Below are positions 2,762 through 30,484 of a stretch of 64,000 bases of DNA, one piece after another (the stretch's first letter is position 1; the number at the start of each line of letters is the position of its first letter). The position numbers were made by a program, and so were the translations under genes. The notes under the pieces are model-generated. The model had not been told where the DNA came from and did no database searches. It saw nothing but the letters and a program-made list of their open reading frames with translations. The stretch comes from Candidatus Giovannonibacteria bacterium RIFCSPHIGHO2_12_FULL_44_22 (GTDB lineage Bacteria; Patescibacteriota; Minisyncoccia; UBA11713; 2-01-FULL-45-33). The stretch spans positions 75,112 through 139,111 of the forward strand of contig MFHU01000003.1 in NCBI GenBank assembly GCA_001778695.1, read 5' to 3'.

Positions 2762-3913
2762 TTATTTTTCCTGATTTTCTTGCACTTCCTCTTTCGGAGC
2801 CACAGGCGCTTCGCCTTTTTTCCCGAGAAACGAAAGCGAAAGTTTTTTATCTTCCGGTTTATAGTTCACTATCTGGAAAAAATATGACTCGCCGGCCAAA
2901 ACCATCTCGCGCATTTTTTTCTCCGTGCCGAATTCCGAAATATGGGCGAGTCCGTAGATGCCGGTGTCCAAAGTTATCAGCGCGCCGAATTTATTTAAAC
3001 GCAAAACTTTTCCTTCCACAATATCGCCTTTTTTATATTTTTCTTTGTGCGTTTCCCAGGGGTCCGGCTTTAAGGCTTTCACTGAAAGTGAAATTTTGTC
3101 TCCGTCTATTGAAATTATTTTAGCTTTTATTTGTTCACCGACTTTAAAAAGCGCGTTGGGGTTTTCCACCAAAGCCCAATCCAGCTCCGAGATGTGGGCG
3201 AGCCCCTCCAGCCCTTCCTCTAATTTTATAAATATTCCGAAATCAACCACGCCGGTAACTTCTCCCTCAATAATGTCGCCGACTTTGTATTTTCCCACGA
3301 CTTTTTTCAAATCTTCTGACTCCGCGCCTTTTTCTGAAAAAATAAGTTTGTTTTCTTTGGGGTCAAAATCCAAAATGGTGACGGAGATAGCCTCTCCAAC
3401 CAATTTTCTAAGCTCGTCAAAAATTTTTTCTTTCTCGCCATTCTCAACTCGCGGGTAGTGGGACGCTTTGAGTTGCGACGCCGGCAGAAATCCTTTGATG
3501 CCGCGCCATTCCAAAACCACGCCGCCTTTGTTGGCTTCCAAAACTTTCAAATTCAAAGCTTCCTGCGAACCCTTCAGCTCTTTAGCTTCTTTCCAAATCA
3601 TTTCCGAGCCCGCTTCTTTCAATGAAAGCTCAACGAAGCCGTTTTCATTTTCAAGTTCCACGATTTTTGCCGTTACCTTATCTTCCGGTTTCAGATTTTT
3701 AATAAGCTCCCGCGCGTTTTGATATTCCTGGCCGTAGATGATGCCGGTGCCGAAAATTCCCAAATCCAAAAACACTTTGGCGCCTTCCCGCTCCAGCACA
3801 CAGCCCTCAATTAAATCGCCGATTTTAAGAAAAACCTTCGGCCGCGCTTTAAGCAAAGCGTCCATTATGCCGTTATTCGGCTTAATATCTTTTTCCATAG
3901 CTAAATTCGCCAT
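2762..3913 (-). CDS. rpsA: 30S ribosomal protein S1
   Basis: Four repeated S1 domains (KVGD/IIEG...GLAHISE patterns). Start chosen at MANLAMEK (3913). The ORF track extends to an alternative ATG at 3958. Confidence 0.8.
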   Translation of the reverse strand: MANLAMEKDIKPNNGIMDALLKARPKVFLKIGDLIEGCVLEREGAKVFLDLGIFGTGIIYGQEYQNARELIKNLKPEDKVTAKIVELENENGFVELSLKEAGSEMIWKEAKELKGSQEALNLKVLEANKGGVVLEWRGIKGFLPASQLKASHYPRVENGEKEKIFDELRKLVGEAISVTILDFDPKENKLIFSEKGAESEDLKKVVGKYKVGDIIEGEVTGVVDFGIFIKLEEGLEGLAHISELDWALVENPNALFKVGEQIKAKIISIDGDKISLSVKALKPDPWETHKEKYKKGDIVEGKVLRLNKFGALITLDTGIYGLAHISEFGTEKKMREMVLAGESYFFQIVNYKPEDKKLSLSFLGKKGEAPVAPKEEVQENQEK

Positions 3914-4604: not shown

Positions 4605-6828
<2,224 letters not shown>

Positions 6829-7765: not shown

Positions 7766-9159
7766 CGATTTTAGAATTTCACAAAGCCCTTAAAAATAAA
7801 AAAACTTCCGCAAGAGAGACGGCAATTTCCTATTTGGACAAAATAAAAAAGGAAAATAAAAATTTAAACGCCTATCTGGAAATTTTTTCCGCCAGAGGGG
7901 GATCCGCATCTGGCGGAGAGTATGACGCGCTTAAGCAGGCAAAAGAAATTGACGAGAAAATCGCTTCGGGCGAAGAACCCGGCGCGCTTTGGGGCGTGCC
8001 GATTGCCATAAAAGACAATATTTTAATAAGAGGGGAAATTGCCTCCGCTGCCTCAAAAATTTTAGGAAATTACGTGGCTTCCTACGACGCGCATGTGATT
8101 GCAAAATTAAAAAAAGCTGGCGTAATATTTTTGGGGCGCACCAATATGGACGAATTTGCCATGGGTTCATCAACCGAAAACTCCGCCTACGGTCCGACAA
8201 AAAATCCGCGCGACACTTCCAAAGTTCCGGGTGGTTCATCTGGCGGCTCGGCCGCCGCCGTTGCCGGCGGCCTCGCCATGGCTGCCTTGGGTTCAGATAC
8301 CGGGGGCTCCATCCGCCAGCCGGCGGCTTTTTGCGGAGTTGTTGGTTTGAAGCCCACTTACGGCGCGGTTTCCCGAAACGGACTTATCGCCATGGCTTCT
8401 TCTTTGGACCAAATCGGACCAATTACCCAAACAGTGGAAGACGCGGAAATTTTATTTAATACAATTAAAGGAAAAGACGAAATGGATTCAACTTCTGTTT
8501 TACCAAAAGTTTTCAACCGCGCCGCCAAAATTAAAACCATTGGCATTCCCAAAGAATATTTCAGTGAACAAGGTCTTGACCCCCATATTAAATCAGAACT
8601 TGATAAAGTAATTAACAAACTTGAGAAAAATTATGAAATCCACGAAATCAACTTGCCGCATACCAAATACGCTCTGGCTTGCTACTATATAATTGTACCG
8701 GCGGAAGTTTCATCCAATATGGCGCGGTTTGACGGTGTAAGATACGGCGAAAGAAAAGATGCCGGAAATTTGATTGAAACTTACAAAAAAAGCCGCGGCG
8801 AGGGAATCGGGCTTGAAGTCAGAAGAAGAATTTTGCTGGGCACTTACGCGCTTTCGGCGGGCTACTACAACGCGTATTATTCCAAAGCCCAGCGCGTCCG
8901 TTCGTTGGTTGCAGAAGATTTTAAAAAAGCATTCGCCGAAGTTGATCTGATTTTGGCGCCCACCGTTCCTACTCCGCCTTTTAAAATCGGCGAAAAAACA
9001 AATGACCCATTGGCTATGTACCTTTCCGATATTTATACTATTCCGGCAAACTTGGCGGGCGTGCCAGCGCTCACTTTGGCTTCAGGCGCCCAGCTTATTG
9101 CCCCGCATTTTGAAGAAAATAGATTATTTGAAGTCGGTAAATTTATAGAACATGATTGA
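7762..9159 (+). CDS. gatA: Asp/Glu-tRNA amidotransferase subunit A (amidase)
   Basis: Amidase signature GGSSGGSAAAVA plus GSDTGGSIRQPA. 465 aa. Confidence 0.9.
   Translation: MTILEFHKALKNKKTSARETAISYLDKIKKENKNLNAYLEIFSARGGSASGGEYDALKQAKEIDEKIASGEEPGALWGVPIAIKDNILIRGEIASAASKILGNYVASYDAHVIAKLKKAGVIFLGRTNMDEFAMGSSTENSAYGPTKNPRDTSKVPGGSSGGSAAAVAGGLAMAALGSDTGGSIRQPAAFCGVVGLKPTYGAVSRNGLIAMASSLDQIGPITQTVEDAEILFNTIKGKDEMDSTSVLPKVFNRAAKIKTIGIPKEYFSEQGLDPHIKSELDKVINKLEKNYEIHEINLPHTKYALACYYIIVPAEVSSNMARFDGVRYGERKDAGNLIETYKKSRGEGIGLEVRRRILLGTYALSAGYYNAYYSKAQRVRSLVAEDFKKAFAEVDLILAPTVPTPPFKIGEKTNDPLAMYLSDIYTIPANLAGVPALTLASGAQLIAPHFEENRLFEVGKFIEHD
7889..7918 (+). repeat. GC-rich palindromic mini-insert in gatA, TCCGCCAGA-N12-TCTGGCGGA, encoding (S)ARGGSASGG(E)
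   Basis: 9-bp inverted arms. A near-identical element is present in asnB at 32926-32956. Confidence 0.6.
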
Positions 9160-9688
9160 TCTCATAAACTCAATTTTTGATTTGGCTTTTAATATTATAG
9201 ATTTTTTAATTAACTACGATTATTCGCGGCCGGTGCCCTTGCTAAAGGCCTTGGCGGTTTATATTTCCATCCCGCTGGTTTTTGGCATAATTTACAGCAT
9301 TTACAAATCCAACCAGATTTTCAGGGCGATGCACGTTTTTGACGAGCCGAAAGGAACGCCGTTGGAGAAAAATAAAAATCAGGAGGATTGGGATAAAATT
9401 TTGGCTGGCGGAAAATCGGAAAATGAAAACGACAGGAAACAAGCAGTAATTTCCGCGGATTCTTTGATTGAGAAAATTTTGGGGATGGCCGGATATTCTG
9501 GAGAAAATTTAGGGGAGAAATTAAAAAATATCGAGCCAGCGGATCTGGATTCTCTGGACGCGCTTTGGGAAGCGCATAAAATCAGAAACCGCATCGCCCA
9601 CGAAGCCGGCTATCAGCTTCTCAAAGAAGATTCCGAAAAAGCCCTCGCCCTTTTTGAAAAAGCGTTGAAGGAATTGGAATATATTTAA
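9152..9688 (+). CDS. Hypothetical protein with an N-terminal TM segment
   Basis: ATG overlaps the gatA stop. No recognisable motifs. Confidence 0.4.
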   Translation: MIDLINSIFDLAFNIIDFLINYDYSRPVPLLKALAVYISIPLVFGIIYSIYKSNQIFRAMHVFDEPKGTPLEKNKNQEDWDKILAGGKSENENDRKQAVISADSLIEKILGMAGYSGENLGEKLKNIEPADLDSLDALWEAHKIRNRIAHEAGYQLLKEDSEKALALFEKALKELEYI

Positions 9689-11203: not shown

Positions 11204-12076
11204 TTATACGCCTATCTTCCATATTTCTTTTTCAAGAAATGCTTCGATAGTTTGGCGCGTCGCTTTATTAATGAGATTTGAATGTGATAATTTATTTTCT
11301 TTTGCGTACTCGGCAAGTGTAATAATTTTCTTACCTTCCAAATACGCCAGCCTTTTGTGGTAACTATTAGTAAGCGACTTAGCTACAATTTCTTCCATAA
11401 TCTCTGTTTTACTTTTTGTGTCGAATTCCTTGAACGCATCATAATATTTTTTCCGGTCAATGAATTTTATGTTGATCGGCGCATATCCCTCACGAATTAA
11501 AAGATAATTATTGATCACTCGCCCAATGCGTCCATTACCATCTACAAACGGGTGCGTGTATTCAAAGGCAAGATGTAGCCCAGCAATTCGTTTAATAATA
11601 TTTTCTTGACTGCTCGCATGATATTCTGCAAGCATTTTTTCAAGTCGCCCCGCCACTTCTTCCGGCTTTGGCGCGATATGGCTTCCCACTCTCACATATT
11701 CTCCCGACGCACGAAACCTTCCGGCAACATCATCACGAATATTTGAGATAAGCATTTTATGGAGAGATAAAATAACATCAAGCGTTAATTCTTGTTCTTT
11801 GGCTCGCTTCTCTATATATGACACCACTCTAGCCAGATTTTTTGCTTCAAAAATTTCTCGCTCACTGATAAACCTGTCTAGGTCAATTTGGAGCAGTATT
11901 TTTTCAGTTTCTTCAAGAGTAAGCGTGCTATTTTCAATAGCGTTGGAGTTATAAACTTGTTCAGCAATTTCCGCTTCGCTCACAAGCTTAATAAGCGCCT
12001 CTTTGCCGGTAGACGCTTTATAGTATCTTTCACGCAGTGAGTGTATTTTATTAAAAACGCTTAATACTTTAGCCAT
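11204..12076 (-). CDS. Fic-family protein (AMPylase type) with an intramolecular inhibitory motif
   Basis: Fic motif HPFVDGNGRIGR. N-terminal SNAIEN matches the (S/T)xxxE(G/N) inhibitory helix. Confidence 0.8.
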   Translation of the reverse strand: MAKVLSVFNKIHSLRERYYKASTGKEALIKLVSEAEIAEQVYNSNAIENSTLTLEETEKILLQIDLDRFISEREIFEAKNLARVVSYIEKRAKEQELTLDVILSLHKMLISNIRDDVAGRFRASGEYVRVGSHIAPKPEEVAGRLEKMLAEYHASSQENIIKRIAGLHLAFEYTHPFVDGNGRIGRVINNYLLIREGYAPINIKFIDRKKYYDAFKEFDTKSKTEIMEEIVAKSLTNSYHKRLAYLEGKKIITLAEYAKENKLSHSNLINKATRQTIEAFLEKEIWKIGV

Positions 12077-12085
12077 ATACCCCCA

Positions 12086-12112
12086 TTATAGTAAAATTCA
12101 CGGTTTTGTCAA
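12086..12112 (-). promoter_or_regulatory. Sigma70-like promoter for fic
   Basis: On the minus strand: TTGACA, a 16-nt spacer, TATAAT, then GGGGG (SD) and ATG. Confidence 0.5.
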
Positions 12113-12156
12113 CATAATCGTGAAAATATAGTATTTTTTTGATGTTTTTCACGGTT

Positions 12157-12333
12157 TTAGCTATAATTTCCCCAAAAACGTCTTATTGAGAACCGTTTTT
12201 TAATCTGCTCTAAATCATCAAGATACTTTAAGAACAAAATCCAAGAAGTTTGCTCAATATAATCAAGCTCTGTGGCGCACCCAGCATCGCGATGCAAAAT
12301 ATCGTCTATATTCCGAAATGCTTGCTCAAACAT
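12157..12333 (-). pseudogene. 58-aa remnant of the N-terminal domain of a type I restriction-modification / N6-adenine methyltransferase (HsdM_N)
   Basis: Manual translation: MFEQAFRNIDDILHRDAGCATELDYIEQTSWILFLKYLDDLEQ..., which fits the HsdM N-terminal pattern (LR...EY...LLFLKYL.D), followed by an early stop. It is below the ORF-track length cutoff. Confidence 0.5.
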
Positions 12334-12420
12334 TTATAGTTTAGTCGCTACAAATAATGAGCTTAGAATAACATAAATTAACGCTTTGCAGAATAAAACT
12401 GTAAGGTTATTAAAATAAAA

Positions 12421-12455
12421 CAGAAGTGGCGGATTTTATCCGCCACTTCTGTTTT
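12421..12455 (-). terminator. Terminator hairpin downstream of the tRNA cluster; A/T runs flank both sides, so possibly bidirectional
   Basis: Perfect 12-bp stem CAGAAGTGGCGG-ATTTTAT-CCGCCACTTCTG, flanked by T and A runs. Confidence 0.6.
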
Positions 12456-12540
12456 ATCATTTTCCAAGCCGATCGGTCTTCCGATAAAAAGTGTTTCGGG
12501 CGCGGGCGATGGGATTTGAACCCACGATCTCCTCTCATGA

Positions 12541-13329: not shown

Positions 13330-14473
13330 AAACATGTCTAATATAGAAATCAAATCTTCGGAGGAGGTAGAGATAATAAAAACTCTTGAGGCCCGGAGCG
13401 ACCACGAGGCAAAAAGATTATTGCGTTTTTTGAAAATGCCGGATTTATCGCGCGCTAAAGCAAGCCCGCTTTATGAATTAATAGAGCGCCTAGTTAACCT
13501 CCCGGAATTTAAATCATTTGATGTTGTAAAAATTCCGGATATTGTCCCCGCCAAAGAAAGTTTTGATTTGTTTGATTTTCCGCTTGACCATCCCACGCGG
13601 AGCAAGTCGGACACATACTATATTAACGACGAATATATTCTTCGCACTCACACTACGGTCATGTGGTATTATTATTTGCTTTCGGAGGCGATTAAAGAAA
13701 AATTAAAAGGCGAAGCGCCAATCGGGGTTTTTTCCTACGGCAAAGTTTACAGGAAAGATGAAATAGATCGCCACCATATGAATGTTTTTCACCAAGTGGA
13801 CGGATTATACCTTTGCCGAAAAAACGAAAAAATTTTTGAAAGGCGGGATTTAGAAGAAGTCCTTGTGAAAATCGCTAAAGCAATATTCGGGAAAGACATA
13901 AAGTATCGCTTTAATGATGATTTTTTTCCGTTTACTTATTCCAGCATTGAAATGGAGATTGAGAAAAAAGATAAATGGATAGAAGTTCTTGGCGCGGGCA
14001 TCGCACAGCCGTCCGTTTTGGAGAAGCTTGGCGTTGATTCTAAAATTTGGGGCGGCTGGGCTTTCGGTTTCGGTTTGGAACGGCTTGCCATAATCAGTAT
14101 GGATTTGCCGGACATACGGCTTTTATGGTCGGAAGATCCGCGGATTAAAAAACAATTGCGCTTGGGAAATAAATATATTCCGGTGAGCAAATATCCGCCG
14201 ATTACTAGAGATATATCTTTTGTCGTCGCCAACGACTTTATTCCAAATAATTATTTTGATTTGATAAGGGATTTGGGAGGCGATTTGGTTGAAGAAGTTA
14301 AGCTGATTGATAAATATGAAAATCTAGAAAAATTCGGCACGGGAAAAATAAGCTACACATACAGAATAATTTACAGAAGCAACGACAGGACTTTGGTTTC
14401 GGGCGAAATTGATAAAATCCAAAACGAAATTTACAAACAAACCGCCAAGCAATTTAACGCCGAATTAAGATGA
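13322..14473 (+). CDS. pheS: Phenylalanine-tRNA ligase, single-chain (mitochondrial-type) form: PheS catalytic core plus a C-terminal FDX-ACB-like anticodon-binding domain
   Basis: HPTRSKSDTYYI...LRTHTT motif. Class II motif 3 GWAFGFGLERLAIISMDLPDIRLLWSEDPR. C-terminal SKYPPITRDISFVV...DLGGDLVEEVKLIDKYE...ISYTYRIIYRSNDRTL resembles the ACB domain of monomeric PheRS. No pheT lies adjacent. Confidence 0.7.
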   Translation: MIKNMSNIEIKSSEEVEIIKTLEARSDHEAKRLLRFLKMPDLSRAKASPLYELIERLVNLPEFKSFDVVKIPDIVPAKESFDLFDFPLDHPTRSKSDTYYINDEYILRTHTTVMWYYYLLSEAIKEKLKGEAPIGVFSYGKVYRKDEIDRHHMNVFHQVDGLYLCRKNEKIFERRDLEEVLVKIAKAIFGKDIKYRFNDDFFPFTYSSIEMEIEKKDKWIEVLGAGIAQPSVLEKLGVDSKIWGGWAFGFGLERLAIISMDLPDIRLLWSEDPRIKKQLRLGNKYIPVSKYPPITRDISFVVANDFIPNNYFDLIRDLGGDLVEEVKLIDKYENLEKFGTGKISYTYRIIYRSNDRTLVSGEIDKIQNEIYKQTAKQFNAELR

Positions 14474-15198
14474 AATCATTTTTACATTTGTTTTATAAAA
14501 TCCGCGGGAAATTTTTAGAAAATTCAGCTAAAAATAAACTTTCTAAATTAAAAAACAGCGAATATAGATTGCCGTATCAAATTCCTTATGTTTCGCAGTA
14601 CGCTTCTAAAGAATTAGCGGAGAGTTATGTTAAAAACGCCGAACTTTTGGCAAGTGACCCAAGGTGGCGCGATTTTGGCGCGGAAACGCCAGAAGAATAC
14701 GCTTTTTGGTCTAGGAGAATTTGCGGAATGGCCTGTTTTCAAATGATTTTATTATCACTTAGACGTCCGACGTCTAAGTTGATGGAATTAGGGAAAAAAG
14801 CGATGACCGCCGGATGCTATTTATTGGATCCCAAAAATCCAAAACGGCTCGTCGGGCTTTTGCATAAACCGTTTTTGAAATTTATTGATAAGTTTGGGCT
14901 TGCCGGGAAACTAATGTGGTATATCGGACCAGCGGTTATCGCCTATGAGATTTTAAATAAAAATTTTGTGATTGCTTCTGTAAGCCACGAAATACGCTTT
15001 AGAGATGCGCGTCCAGAAGATAAAACCGGGCACTTGGTTTTAGTTCATGGGTTTAAAATGAATGGAGGCATAATCGCTGGATTTTATATTCATAATCCTT
15101 CTGGTTTTTACGGCATCTCGCAAGAAAATCATTTTGTCCCGGCTGATGATTTTTTAAATTGCTTCTCGGGCAGGATTATTGTTTTGAAGTTAAAGTAA
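14470..15198 (+). CDS. Hypothetical papain-like (peptidase C39-like) protein
   Basis: VSQ...ICGMACFQMIL Cys block and HLVLVHGF His block. It contains the palindromic insert at 14757-14784. Confidence 0.35.
   Translation: MKSFLHLFYKIRGKFLENSAKNKLSKLKNSEYRLPYQIPYVSQYASKELAESYVKNAELLASDPRWRDFGAETPEEYAFWSRRICGMACFQMILLSLRRPTSKLMELGKKAMTAGCYLLDPKNPKRLVGLLHKPFLKFIDKFGLAGKLMWYIGPAVIAYEILNKNFVIASVSHEIRFRDARPEDKTGHLVLVHGFKMNGGIIAGFYIHNPSGFYGISQENHFVPADDFLNCFSGRIIVLKLK
14757..14784 (+). repeat. Palindromic element CACTTAGACGTC-C-GACGTCTAAGTTGAT inside a CDS, encoding LRRPTSKL
   Basis: An identical 28-nt copy lies at 28894-28921 in an unrelated GT4 gene. The core palindrome is 21 bp. Confidence 0.8.
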
Positions 15199-27302: not shown

Positions 27303-29438
27303 ATGAGCGAAAAACCTGCGGTTTTAGTTTTTACTACCGCTTATTTCCCGTTTGTGGGAGGAGCGGAAGTGGCGATACAGGAAGTGGCAAGAAGGCTCAA
27401 AAATGAGTACGATTTTTTTATTTTTACTTCAAGAATGGACGGCAAACTCCCAGCGCGCGAAAAAAGGCTAGAAGGATTGGTAATCAGAATTGGTTTTGGA
27501 AATAAATTTGATAAATTCTGGCTTTTAATTTTTGGATGGTTTGTAGCTTGGCGGGAATTGAGAAAGTGGCATAGAAAAATTATTTTTTGGGTTATGGATT
27601 TTTCGTTCGGGGCCGCGGTAGCTGGATTTTTGAAAATTTTTTATCCGAAAATTCCGTTGGTTTTTACAATTCAATATGGCTACGGCGACGAAAGAGTTAA
27701 AAAAGGCAGAGGTGGCCTTATGAATTTGGCATTTCGGCTGATACTTTCGCAGGCGGATTATGTTACGGCAATTTCAAATTATTTATTGAATTTATGCAAG
27801 CAGTACGGCTATATTGGCGAGGAAGCGGTAATACACAACGGGGTTGATTTAAAAAAGTTTACAAATCAAGAATCACGAATAGGAAATCATGTGATAATTT
27901 CAACCTCGCGGCGAGTTTACAAAAATGGTCTGGATATTCTGGAAAAGGCCTTCGAGATCATAAAAAAGAAATTTCCAGATGCCGAGTTGAAAATTGTTAG
28001 CGACGTTCCGTATGATGAATTGCCTAAATATTTATGGAAAGCTAGTATCTTCGTCAGACCCTCGCGCTCTGAGGGGATGGGCAATGCGTTTATTGAAGCT
28101 TTAGCGGCCGGATTACCGATAATTGGCACGCCTGTCGGAGGGATTTTAGATATTATTGAGGATGGGCAGACGGGTCTTTTCGCGAAAGTTGACGACCCAC
28201 AAGATTTAGCAGAGAAAATTAAAATTTTACTCGAAGATAAAAAATTGGTGTCGCAAATTATAGAAAATGGTAGAAAAATAGTTGAAGAAAGATTTTCTTG
28301 GGATAAAATCGCGGCGCAATACGCCGAGGTTTTTAATTCGCAATTAAATACAAAAAAAAGAATACTGATAGTCACAGGAATTTTCCCGCCCGATGTCGGT
28401 GGACCGGCGACATACAGCAAAATTTTACTAGACGAGTTGCCTAAAGAAAATTTTTGCGCAAAAGTATTAAGTTTCGGAAGCGTTAAATATTTGCCCAAAG
28501 GCATTAGCCATATTGCTTATTTCCTTAAAGCCATGCGGTTAGGCGCGCGCGCCGATATTATTTTCGCGCAGGATCCGGTGAGTGTGGGGTTGCCCGCGAT
28601 GCTAGCGGCAAAAATTTTGCGCAAAAAATTTATTTTAAAAATCGTGGGCGATTATGCTTGGGAACAAGGCGTTCAGCGGTTCGAGGTGAAAGAGATTTTA
28701 GATGATTTTTTAAATAAGAAATACGGTATTAATGTGGAGGTTTTGAGAAAAATAGAAAAATTTGTCGCAAATCACACAGAAAAAATTATCGTGCCGAGCG
28801 AGTATTTGAAAAAAGTTGTTTCGGCGTGGGGCGTAAATCCGAATAAAATTAAAGTAATTTATAATGCGTTTGATTTTAAAGACTTCGAACACACACTTAG
28901 ACGTCCGACGTCTAAGTTGATTGTTTCGGCGGGTCGTCTTGTTCCGTGGAAAGGATTCGGCACTTTAATTGAGATTATGCCAAAGATTTTAAGAGAAGTG
29001 CCGGACGCGAAGTTGATTATTATTGGAGATGGACCGGAAAGACACAAATTAAAATTACAAGTAGCCACTTGGCGGCTCGGCCGCCAAGTGGAACTTATAG
29101 GAAATCTGCCGCATAAAAAAGTTTTGGAATATCTCGCTTCCGCCGATGCTTTTATTTTAAACACTGCCTACGAAGGATTTTCGCACCAAATTTTGGAGGC
29201 GATGGCAATTGGGGCGCCTGTTATCACGACAAACGTTTGCGGAAATCCGGAGTTGGTGGAAAACAATGTCTCCGGAATTTTGGTCGAATTTAACGATAAG
29301 GAAGCGATTAAAAATTCTATTTTAAAATTATTGAAAGACGAAAAACTTACTCAAAAATTAACCTCCGCCGCTTTCCAAAAATCCAAACAATTTTCAAAAG
29401 AGAGGATGATTAATGAAACGATAAAAATATTATTATGA
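27303..29438 (+). CDS. Tandem two-domain glycosyltransferase (GT4 + GT4)
   Basis: Two EX7E-type motifs: SEGMGNAFIEALAAGLPIIGT and FSHQILEAMAIGAPVITT. Confidence 0.7.
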   Translation: MSEKPAVLVFTTAYFPFVGGAEVAIQEVARRLKNEYDFFIFTSRMDGKLPAREKRLEGLVIRIGFGNKFDKFWLLIFGWFVAWRELRKWHRKIIFWVMDFSFGAAVAGFLKIFYPKIPLVFTIQYGYGDERVKKGRGGLMNLAFRLILSQADYVTAISNYLLNLCKQYGYIGEEAVIHNGVDLKKFTNQESRIGNHVIISTSRRVYKNGLDILEKAFEIIKKKFPDAELKIVSDVPYDELPKYLWKASIFVRPSRSEGMGNAFIEALAAGLPIIGTPVGGILDIIEDGQTGLFAKVDDPQDLAEKIKILLEDKKLVSQIIENGRKIVEERFSWDKIAAQYAEVFNSQLNTKKRILIVTGIFPPDVGGPATYSKILLDELPKENFCAKVLSFGSVKYLPKGISHIAYFLKAMRLGARADIIFAQDPVSVGLPAMLAAKILRKKFILKIVGDYAWEQGVQRFEVKEILDDFLNKKYGINVEVLRKIEKFVANHTEKIIVPSEYLKKVVSAWGVNPNKIKVIYNAFDFKDFEHTLRRPTSKLIVSAGRLVPWKGFGTLIEIMPKILREVPDAKLIIIGDGPERHKLKLQVATWRLGRQVELIGNLPHKKVLEYLASADAFILNTAYEGFSHQILEAMAIGAPVITTNVCGNPELVENNVSGILVEFNDKEAIKNSILKLLKDEKLTQKLTSAAFQKSKQFSKERMINETIKILL
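28894..28921 (+). repeat. Second copy of the CACTTAGACGTCCGACGTCTAAGTTGAT palindromic element
   Basis: Identical 28 nt to 14757-14784. It encodes LRRPTSKL in-frame. Confidence 0.8.
29065..29091 (+). repeat. Hairpin element CCACTTGGCGGC-TCG-GCCGCCAAGTGG (12-bp stem) inside a GT CDS, encoding TWRLGRQV
   Basis: Read directly. A second copy lies at 29835-29873. Confidence 0.8.
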
Positions 29439-30484
29439 AAGTCTTAATGATAAGCGGGGATCCGGGGGTTTTGAATCCGAATAGCGACGCGGGAAAGCGG
29501 ATGGAAGAATATCGCCAAACTCTTGGAACATTAGATATTTTAGTCTGCCGAGGAAATATTTTTAGTTTTATTACAGGATTTTTTCGCGGCGTAAAAATCA
29601 TTCGCAAAAATAAACCCGAAGTTATTACAGCTCAAGATATGGAACATTCTCTATTTGCTTGGATTTTTTCAAGATTATTTAAAGTTCCGTGGCAGATGCA
29701 GATTCATACGGATATTTTTAGTCCGTATTTTTGGCAGGAATCTTTTAAAAATAAAATACGCGTTGTGCTGGCAAAATTCTTGTTGCCTCGAGCAAGTTGT
29801 ATTCGGGTTATGAGCGAAAGAATTAAAGAATCAATAACTTGGCGGCTCGGCCGCCAAGTGGCGGCCGAGTTATTCGTTACAGTTTTGCCAATTTTTGTGG
29901 ATACGGAAAAAATTAAAAATACGCCGATTAAAACCAATCTTCACAAAAAATATCCCGGGCGGTTTATAATTTTGATGGCATCGCGGATAACAAGAGAAAA
30001 AAATATCGTCATGGCCTTAGAGGCCATGCGCGGACTAACGCAGAATGACACGCGGACTAACGCAGAAAAGGTTTTATTGCTGATTATCGGTGATGGGCCG
30101 GAGAAAGAACACTTACGGCGTATGGCGTATAGCTTAAAGCTGGATGAGAGCGTTGTTTTTGAGTCAGCTACTTCCGACCTCGCTTCTTATTATAAAACCT
30201 GCGATTTGTTTTTGCTCACCTCCGATTACGAAGGGTACGGAAGAACTTTGATTGAGGCGGCGGCCATTAAAGCCAAAATAATCTCCTCCGATGTCGGAAT
30301 AGTTCCGGAAATTTTAGAGTTGGATTGTATTTTTAAAATTGGTGATAAGGATGGTTTGGCTGAAAAAATCAACGCCGCTTTGGCAGGCCAACTCAAGCCG
30401 CCAAAACCTGTGATTTTTCAAACAAAAGAGGAATATCTAAGATTATATAAGAATAACTTGGAACAATGCCAAAAAATATTTTAA
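29435..30484 (+). CDS. Glycosyltransferase family 4
   Basis: C-terminal YEGYGRTLIEAAAIKAKIISSDVG. Confidence 0.6.
   Translation: MKVLMISGDPGVLNPNSDAGKRMEEYRQTLGTLDILVCRGNIFSFITGFFRGVKIIRKNKPEVITAQDMEHSLFAWIFSRLFKVPWQMQIHTDIFSPYFWQESFKNKIRVVLAKFLLPRASCIRVMSERIKESITWRLGRQVAAELFVTVLPIFVDTEKIKNTPIKTNLHKKYPGRFIILMASRITREKNIVMALEAMRGLTQNDTRTNAEKVLLLIIGDGPEKEHLRRMAYSLKLDESVVFESATSDLASYYKTCDLFLLTSDYEGYGRTLIEAAAIKAKIISSDVGIVPEILELDCIFKIGDKDGLAEKINAALAGQLKPPKPVIFQTKEEYLRLYKNNLEQCQKIF
29835..29873 (+). repeat. Second copy of the TTGGCGGCTCGGCCGCCAAGTGG hairpin element, extended by CGGCCGAGTTATT
   Basis: ACTTGGCGGCTCGGCCGCCAAGTGG is identical to 29067-29091. It encodes TWRLGRQV. Confidence 0.8.
30011..30072 (+). 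repeat. Hairpin ATGGCCT-TAG-AGGCCAT followed by a tandem 22-bp duplication (CGCGGACTAACGCAG x2) inside a GT4 CDS
   Basis: Read directly. It encodes MALEAMRGLTQNDTRTNAEK. Confidence 0.7.

Follow-up and report, generated by a model that had tools for sequence, protein, structure and literature searches.

Repetitive extragenic palindromic (REP) sequences and the REP-associated tyrosine transposases (RAYTs) linked to them are known mainly from Proteobacteria, where the palindromes occur as extragenic repeats. The reference systems are TnpA-REP/YafM of E. coli (structure 4ER8) and the REPs of Pseudomonas and Stenotrophomonas (PMC2817692; PMC3116915; PMC5581495). An unpaired GTAG or CGTC at one end tags the REP (Di Nocera et al., 2013, PMC3733652), and an NP(L/V)(R/K)xG motif next to the tyrosine is a feature of RAYTs (Nunvar, 2010, PMC2817692). 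Tagged REPs have also been found inside genes, as single units or dimers that are translated in open reading frames (ORFs), many of them in replication and repair genes, and their hosts tolerate them (PMC3733652). Rickettsia palindromic elements (RPEs) are in-frame palindromic repeats in genes that stay functional, in small genomes; RPE-1, a palindromic insertion of greater length, extends its host protein by a peptide segment, and no link to a transposase was noted there (as cited in PMC3733652). Here we describe two GC-rich hairpins that are translated in frame in adjacent GT4 glycosyltransferase genes, in a 64,000-nucleotide stretch of Candidatus Giovannonibacteria bacterium RIFCSPHIGHO2_12_FULL_44_22 (contig MFHU01000003.1, positions 75,112 to 139,111), hereafter the window. 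Comparison with related genomes suggests that both hairpins belong to a REP/RAYT-like system in bacteria of the candidate phyla radiation (CPR).

Two in-frame hairpins in adjacent GT4 genes

A preliminary description of the window had reported a hairpin with a 12-bp stem, whose 25-nt core recurs in the next GT4 gene, both copies being in frame and encoding TWRLGRQV. These statements were confirmed, except that the second copy lies at 29837-29861 and not, as given there, at 29836-29860. Copy 1, CCACTTGGCGGC-TCG-GCCGCCAAGTGG, is a 27-nt perfect hairpin with a 3-nt loop (Table 1). Copy 2 shares 25 identical bases with it (ACTTGGCGGCTCGGCCGCCAAGTGG) and has a 10-bp stem around the same TCG loop. 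The exact sequence occurs only twice in the window, and 100 dinucleotide shuffles yielded no match. The fold of copy 1 as single-stranded DNA (ssDNA) had -16.7 kcal/mol (z = -6.3); for the region of copy 2, the value was -14.7 kcal/mol (z = -4.7). The latter fold uses an overlapping alternative hairpin, which corresponds to the larger structure into which copy 2 had been said to extend. This alternative hairpin arises from a truncated second unit with inverted loop orientation (GGCGGC-CGA-G), which makes copy 2 a doublet.

The locus belongs to Giovannonibacteria from the Rifle aquifer, with near-identical contigs in NCBI (MFHN01000005.1), JGI, and ENA, and its proteins are common to GW2011_GWB1_43_13 and GWA2_44_26. 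At position 29072, within the stem of copy 1, the window carries a C, where other assemblies of the population (L001, L003, and L004) carry a T at position 9639, with one N. This single-nucleotide polymorphism (SNP) turns TGG CGG into TGG TGG, an R-to-W change, and disrupts the stem of copy 1; over 21 kb, only three differences, of which it is one, separate the window from L001 or L003. The differences among L001-L004 were considered as a candidate empty site and rejected, as they merely reflect this C/T SNP in the stem.

A dispersed hairpin family in CPR genomes

One genome per species was scanned for the motif ACTTGGCGGC-NNN-GCCGCCAAGT, with perfect 10-bp stems only. The scan matched 53 genome loci, about 41 of which came from metagenome-assembled genomes (MAGs) of CPR bacteria (Giovannoni-, Pacei-, Sacchari-, Campbell-, and Taylorbacteria). 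By our own estimate, for which we took the 20 specified bases and the collection size, about one locus would be expected at random. The genome-wide motif count proposed in the preliminary description thus revealed a dispersed family, most copies of which are intragenic and in frame. Its remark that nothing could refute the observation was wrong: the reading as an element fails for a sequence that occurs nowhere else, and this one was found at dozens of loci. Many CPR MAGs were multi-copy, with about 5-12 perfect copies per MAG, a lower bound that counts perfect stems only. With a unit of 23-27 nt, the family agrees with the 20-40-nt GC-rich repeated palindromes that are typical of REPs.

Flanks were unrelated between copies, yet they often lengthened the palindrome by G/T, followed by G. 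Loops were genome-specific: several Paceibacterota and Giovannonibacteria had TTA/TAA, a Saccharibacteria MAG had GNC, and MFHL, MFIM, and PFDM had TCG/CGA, TGA/TCA, and TCC/GGA, respectively. A metagenome scan for the exact hairpin with the TCG loop cannot count as a census, since the only 12 stretches that it returned did not include the JGI contigs of the window itself. A viral scan gave two matches, one of them on a GC-rich contig.

Two further observations concern the hairpin sequence itself. At 8630-8690 of locus L089, hairpin arms form a small array in tandem, ACTTGGCGGC-CGA-GCCGCCAAGT-GGCGGC-TTAGA-GCCGCCAAGT-GGCGGC-TTAA-CCGC, within the 3' end of a 774-codon minus-strand ORF; the array resembles a miniature bacterial interspersed mosaic element. 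At 8241-8256 of the window, 16 nt (TGGCGGCTCGGCCGCC) are identical to the hairpin core and fall within a sequence translated as GGSSGGSAAAVAGGLAMAALG, which we take to resemble an amidase signature; the core can thus also arise from Gly, Ser, and Ala codons.

Association with a RAYT-type transposase gene

The family was further found to be tied to a RAYT-type transposase, a link that goes beyond the preliminary description. At eight loci (L008, L017, L024, L043/L060, L052, L053, L070, and L080), the hairpin was found within a gene for a protein of about 218 amino acids and close to it on both the upstream and the downstream side, in two to three copies at constant distances of roughly 486 and 210 nt. 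The encoded protein matched the Pfam family Y1_Tnp with 32 bits (cut-off 23), and the HUH motif (N80, H81, and H83; NHYHF) as well as the catalytic tyrosine, Y141, were invariant in 32 sequences. In a fold search with its AF2 model (pLDDT 82, pTM 0.82), the best match was 4ER8_A, the E. coli RAYT-REP complex (E = 9.3e-6, probability 1.0), followed by TnpA of IS608 and ISDra2. Sequence searches of the PDB, with a single RAYT or with a profile, retrieved nothing, and 4ER8 was recovered by the fold search alone. The match to the NCBIfam equivalog REP_Tyr_transpos was weak (21.5 bits, cut-off 80). Beside the tyrosine, the clade carries YVNLN[FYDN]xVHQLGGxxAKL instead of NP(L/V)(R/K)xG; distant relatives from the same search do carry YIHLNP.

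Relatives of this RAYT formed more than 4,900 clusters at 90% identity, mostly from CPR bacteria and some of them named RayT by JGI; a profile search gave 964 representatives at 50% identity with E <= 1e-30. Two different RAYT proteins, P0244 and P0327, shared a serS...RAYT...PMT_2 neighbourhood, which was sought in the window and in L001-L004 and was found in neither. Among the hairpins that flank the RAYT gene (at least eight loci), orientation, read from the loop alone, was inverted in L017 and L024 and direct in L008, L053, and L060. The TCG/CGA variant of the window flanks the gene for P0244, from Giovannonibacteria of the same aquifer samples. P0244, P0257, P0327, and P0333 were considered as the RAYT of the window's species and rejected, as they belong to other genomes. 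Locus L080 carries a second Y1_Tnp gene (11789-12466), of the canonical YIHCNP...WSS type and without internal hairpin, on the same contig and 5 kb from the hairpin-bearing RAYT gene.

A conserved hairpin inside the RAYT reading frame

The RAYT family motif YVNLN-xx-VHQLGGxxAKLVKSSWxEY itself contains the hairpin, as CTT GGC GGC nnn GCC GCC AAG encodes LGGxAAK. Variant peptides at this position (LGDQVAK, LGGxTAK, LGGEASK, LSDLVAK, and LGSSTPK) correspond to palindromic codon pairs (GAC/GTC, GGT/ACC, GGA/TCC, and AGC/GCT). In the DNA of 13 distinct RAYT genes, the helix extended to up to 15 bp. Their alignment had 15 pairs with 90% of cells paired; six pairs had changed on both sides and none on one side only. 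None of 500 shuffles reached the observed values, and slid controls were far lower. Among 90 motif variants, the central codon pair was reverse-complement compatible in 94%, versus 69% with shuffled partners. The absence of G-T type changes in these 13 stems hints at pairing of DNA rather than RNA.

The copy inside the gene also agreed with the copies around it. In L080, the stem variant ACTTGGCGAC-CAG-GTCGCCAAGT was common to the upstream, internal, and downstream copies, and the genome-specific loops (TTA/TAA, GNC, TCG/CGA, TGA/TCA, and TCC/GGA) matched those of the RAYT-internal copies. The residues encoded by the loop are the sole internal stretch of the RAYT model with pLDDT below 50. No published description of a conserved hairpin copy inside a RAYT ORF was found.

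Location of family copies in host genes

Counting the two copies in the window, 39 of 59 copies lay inside ORFs of at least 120 codons, with all three frames in use; copies were found in both orientations and also in intergenic DNA. All 10 long host ORFs that were checked were Pfam-confirmed genes. Several copies sat at Pfam domain borders, in line with the earlier suggestion that the hairpins might coincide with domain linkers. The copy in DnaE follows the PHP domain and that in LepA stands directly after the G domain; in one of two MurD-like ligases the copy lies between the M and C domains; and two IleRS-like proteins carry it just before the anticodon-binding domain, in different frames. 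In two NusA proteins the copy falls within an expanded N-terminal domain, and LeuRS and TsaD were further hosts. In genomes with TTA/TAA loops, frame-2 copies were always oriented to read TTA (Leu) and never TAA (stop), as would be the expected product of a selective filter.

Class-I tRNA synthetases of CPR bacteria (L023, L025, and L039) were also seen to carry whole extra domains, namely His_Phos_1 in IleRS-like proteins and NUDIX plus Ser_hydrolase in LeuRS.

The two GT4 sites in orthologous proteins

Site 2, in the 349-amino-acid protein, lies within SERIKxS[...]VLPIFVD, a stretch that is hypervariable in length and sequence among orthologs. In the model it comprises the end of a helix and a short helix preceding the last strand of the N-terminal domain. 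Two orthologs, P0003 and P0018 (62-66% identical to the window protein), have a hairpin at this site, as confirmed in their DNA, with different centres (TGGCA and TGA, respectively), and P0014 encodes a hairpin-type peptide, TWRFNRQV (seen at the protein level; DNA not read). Complete doublets were found at site 2 of P0018 and in ortholog L058, with similar doublets in L045/L093 and L089. Set beside REPINs, which are inverted REP doublets, the doublets of copy 2, L058, L045/L093, and L089 consist of abutting or overlapping units with inverted loops and no spacer; most copies of the family are singlets. Ortholog L097 carries at site 2 (about 3400-3440) a doublet of another palindrome, GGACGTC-G-GACGTCC plus GGACGTC-C-GACGTCC, translated as RTSDVRSDVRRP, and ortholog L098 has a direct repeat instead (LISN...LISN). 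Site 2 is thus a hotspot for different small repeats.

Site 1 lies in a helix-strand region of the C-terminal domain, and site 2 at the end of the N-terminal domain. At site 1, in the 711-amino-acid protein, the hairpin occupies codons that read AAT TAC AAA TTA CAA AAA ACC GTT in one ortholog. In about 9 of 21 orthologs of this protein, a 25-residue stretch of the second GT4 module, precisely the one that holds copy 1, is missing. Five orthologs and the window protein lack the corresponding stretch of the first module. These elements of the Rossmann domains appear dispensable, or the modules appear to be degenerating.

Other palindromes in the window and at related loci

The preliminary description had counted the TWRLGRQV hairpin as one of several families of in-frame palindromes, which is borne out by a sister hairpin and by a palindrome in ligA. 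The sister hairpin is present in two identical 23-nt in-frame copies (Table 1), with the build and the ACTT/AAGT ends of the TWRLGRQV hairpin. The identical 23 nt of the GT4 copy are kept in ortholog L098, and RRPTSKL was found in P0127, P0130, and P0135. None of 270 RAYT sequences that were inspected contained an internal hairpin of the LRRPTSK type that would match this sister family. The palindrome in ligA, the gene for an NAD-dependent DNA ligase (4816-6828), is a perfect 31-nt sequence at 5150-5180, ACCCCCACACCAAAA-G-TTTTGGTGTGGGGGT, in frame within the adenylation domain and unrelated to the hairpin in sequence.

A hairpin with a perfect 20-bp stem (ATAAAACAGAAGTGGCGGAT / ATCCGCCACTTCTGTTTTAT) and a 3-nt loop, at 12415-12457 in a stretch with short ORFs only, may be a terminator or another element. 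Finally, a 20-nt palindrome, CCTGCCTGCCGGCAGGCAGG, was found in three unrelated CPR loci (L060, 10101-10120; L070, 5739-5758; L082, 16679-16698), with a similar palindrome at 13797-13819 of L080, and probably represents another dispersed hairpin family.

Table 1. Coordinates, in window positions, of the hairpins under study and of their host genes.
Feature	Position	Strand	Remarks
Hairpin copy 1	29065-29091		Encodes (A)TWRLGRQV, residues 589-596 of the 711-amino-acid double GT4 protein
Hairpin copy 2	29837-29861		Encodes TWRLGRQV, residues 135-142 of the 349-amino-acid GT4 protein
Alternative hairpin CTCGGCCGCCA-AG-TGGCGGCCGAG, overlapping copy 2	29846-29869
Host gene 1	27303-29438	+	711-amino-acid protein, two tandem GT4 (GT-B) modules
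Host gene 2	29435-30484	+	349-amino-acid GT4 glycosyltransferase; AlphaFold model, mean pLDDT 88
Sister hairpin ACTTAGACGTC-C-GACGTCTAAGT	28895-28917		Encodes LRRPTSK; linker between N- and C-domain of the second GT4 module, 711-amino-acid gene
Sister hairpin, second copy	14757-14779		Encodes LRRPTSK; 242-amino-acid Peptidase_C39_2-like ORF (14470-15198)

Interpretation of the in-frame hairpins

The two GT4 hairpins are probably REP-like non-autonomous elements of a CPR REP/RAYT system, tolerated in frame. The element would be a 23-27-nt GC-rich palindrome, (CC)ACTTGGCGGC-NNN-GCCGCCAAGT(GG), with copies scattered over Patescibacteria/CPR genomes. The enzyme would come from a single RAYT-type HUH/Y1 gene, which in related genomes is bracketed by hairpins and holds one more copy in its own frame; by analogy with E. 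coli TnpA-REP and IS608 TnpA, we infer that this enzyme may recognise the hairpin in ssDNA, cut beside it and re-join it elsewhere. Because CPR genomes have almost no intergenic space, most copies would land in genes. Surviving copies would be those that keep the frame, introduce no stop codon, and fall where the protein is tolerant, in surface loops or domain linkers, to be translated there as about eight residues (TWRxxRQV, LGGxAAK, or LAAxPPS, according to the frame). The two copies in the GT4 genes would be survivors of this kind.

Several observations count against this interpretation. No RAYT gene was detected by tblastn in the 64-kb window, in the 10-kb flanks on its contig, or in L001-L004, and none could be assigned via cluster accessions to the window's species (GW2011_GWB1_43_13 / GWA2_44_26). 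No insertion polymorphism, in the form of a filled versus an empty site, was found in close strains, so that mobility is inferred. Judged as REPs, the copies are mostly intragenic rather than extragenic, their number is low where REPs exceed 100 per genome, and the unpaired tag is absent (GTAG at 4 of 118 flanks and CGTC at 2 of 118). The data are MAGs, and intragenic calls are based on ORF length. Copy 1 replaces 8-9 native AT-rich codons, with a length unchanged relative to 12 aligned orthologs, so that simple insertion was rejected for this copy and offers no explanation for the same-length replacement. The hairpin stretch of the RAYT is likewise no longer than its equivalent in canonical YIHLNP...WSS relatives, and simple insertion would not explain the RAYT-internal copy either.

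These unchanged lengths at site 1 and inside the RAYT, together with the different palindrome families that share GT4 site 2 across lineages, led us to consider that hairpins overwrite existing coding DNA without changing its length, with the RAYT-internal copy as a master template, a target of self-regulation, or both. If the RAYT drove such a conversion-like 'hairpin homing', hairpins would stay perfect at orthologous sites although the proteins are only 62-66% identical, and the loops within each genome would become uniform. We regard this possibility as tentative and, on balance, unlikely.

Also unlikely is selection of the hairpin in place for a cis-acting function: it would form an mRNA structure that stabilises the transcript or makes ribosomes slow down where domains meet, or it would serve as the binding site of a conserved CPR protein. 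The association with the RAYT would then be secondary, reflecting a domesticated enzyme that maintains useful hairpins. Retention of a perfect hairpin with different centres at the orthologous GT4 site in three lineages that are 62-66% identical, to which the hairpin-type peptide of P0014 would add a fourth, is consistent with such selection, as are the copies at domain borders of essential genes and the overprinting, without change of length, by copy 1 and the RAYT-internal copy. However, purifying selection on insertions predicts placement at domain borders equally well, and the use of both orientations and all frames, the intergenic copies, and the unrelated positions in non-orthologous genes argue against a function in place. 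So do the lack of G-U type changes in the RAYT-internal stem, which points to pairing of DNA over RNA, if in 13 sequences only, and the SNP by which one of only three differences in 21 kb disrupts the stem of copy 1.

A GC-rich stem-loop could in principle also act as an intrinsic terminator, as an attenuator, as a DNA-uptake sequence, or as a palindrome recognised by restriction-modification or another system, and CPR bacteria are believed to rely on taking up DNA. This explanation is very improbable. Neither copy in the window is followed by a T-run, both being mid-ORF, and an Rfam search gave no family at the gathering threshold (best match 26.9 bits versus 65, all matches at chance level). 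About 5-12 copies per MAG are far too few for an uptake signal, and the stems co-vary with a specific transposase gene.

A purely local event is hardly credible, be it that the hairpin was duplicated or passed by gene conversion between the two GT4 paralogs that lie side by side, or that the palindrome arose by chance: although the two copies are only 770 bp apart and share frame and orientation, sites 1 and 2 are not homologous, on which ground gene conversion between the two genes was rejected, flanking homology is absent, and the same sequence occurs in dozens of unrelated genes and genomes, with a shuffle expectation of zero. Equally remote is selection of TWRLGRQV as a peptide with the palindrome as a by-product, for which a resemblance of WRLGRQV at site 1 to a native GT4 'k-L-g-l-x-x-V' stretch might speak, but elsewhere this DNA is read in three different frames or lies outside ORFs, and in orthologs the stem is retained whereas the loop-encoded residues vary (LG, LS, WH, and FN).

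Under the preferred reading as REP-like elements, a system so far described mainly from Proteobacteria would be present in streamlined CPR genomes and translated within essential genes. This would account for odd GC-rich in-frame palindromes in MAGs that otherwise resemble oddities of assembly or annotation. The positions of the hairpins would provide a natural map of sites in essential proteins that tolerate replacements or insertions of about eight residues. A RAYT clade with its cognate hairpin in its own coding sequence, and with compensatory covariation, would also offer a compact test system for the recognition, copying, and homogenisation of REPs by RAYTs.

Comparison with known systems

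No paper linking RAYTs or REPs with CPR bacteria was found in the library searched. The closest likeness is to the REP/RAYT systems (REPtrons, REPINs) of Proteobacteria. As there, a short GC-rich palindrome recurs across the genome and brackets an apparently single HUH/Y1 transposase gene, here with a product whose fold matches 4ER8, and palindrome and RAYT co-evolve through compensatory stem changes. The serS...RAYT...PMT_2 neighbourhood, common to two RAYT proteins, may likewise represent conserved synteny. The CPR system differs from them in its mostly intragenic, in-frame copies without a GTAG/CGTC head, at about 5-12 perfect copies per MAG, and in an enzyme that has YVNLN-x-KVHQLGG rather than NP(L/V)(R/K)xG and falls well short of the NCBIfam equivalog cut-off (21.5 versus 80 bits). 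The conserved hairpin inside the RAYT ORF and the CPR/Patescibacteria host are further differences. Intragenic tagged REPs are a minority of a mostly extragenic population (PMC3733652), whereas here the intragenic copies are the majority and untagged. In contrast to RPEs, the units are only 23-27 nt long and have a RAYT link, and in at least one copy sequence is replaced rather than added. TnpA proteins of the insertion sequences (ISs) of the IS200/IS605 family (IS608, ISDra2) share the HUH/Y1 fold and, presumably, the recognition of ssDNA hairpins as substrate. In that family, an autonomous multi-copy IS is delimited by imperfect hairpins that are not alike at its left and right ends, whereas the CPR hairpin is of one perfect, symmetric type and is dispersed alone. 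Intragenic REPs and in-frame Rickettsia elements are thus already known (PMC3733652); what is new is the host range among CPR bacteria, the predominance of copies in coding sequence, a hairpin kept within the RAYT ORF, and replacement without change of length.

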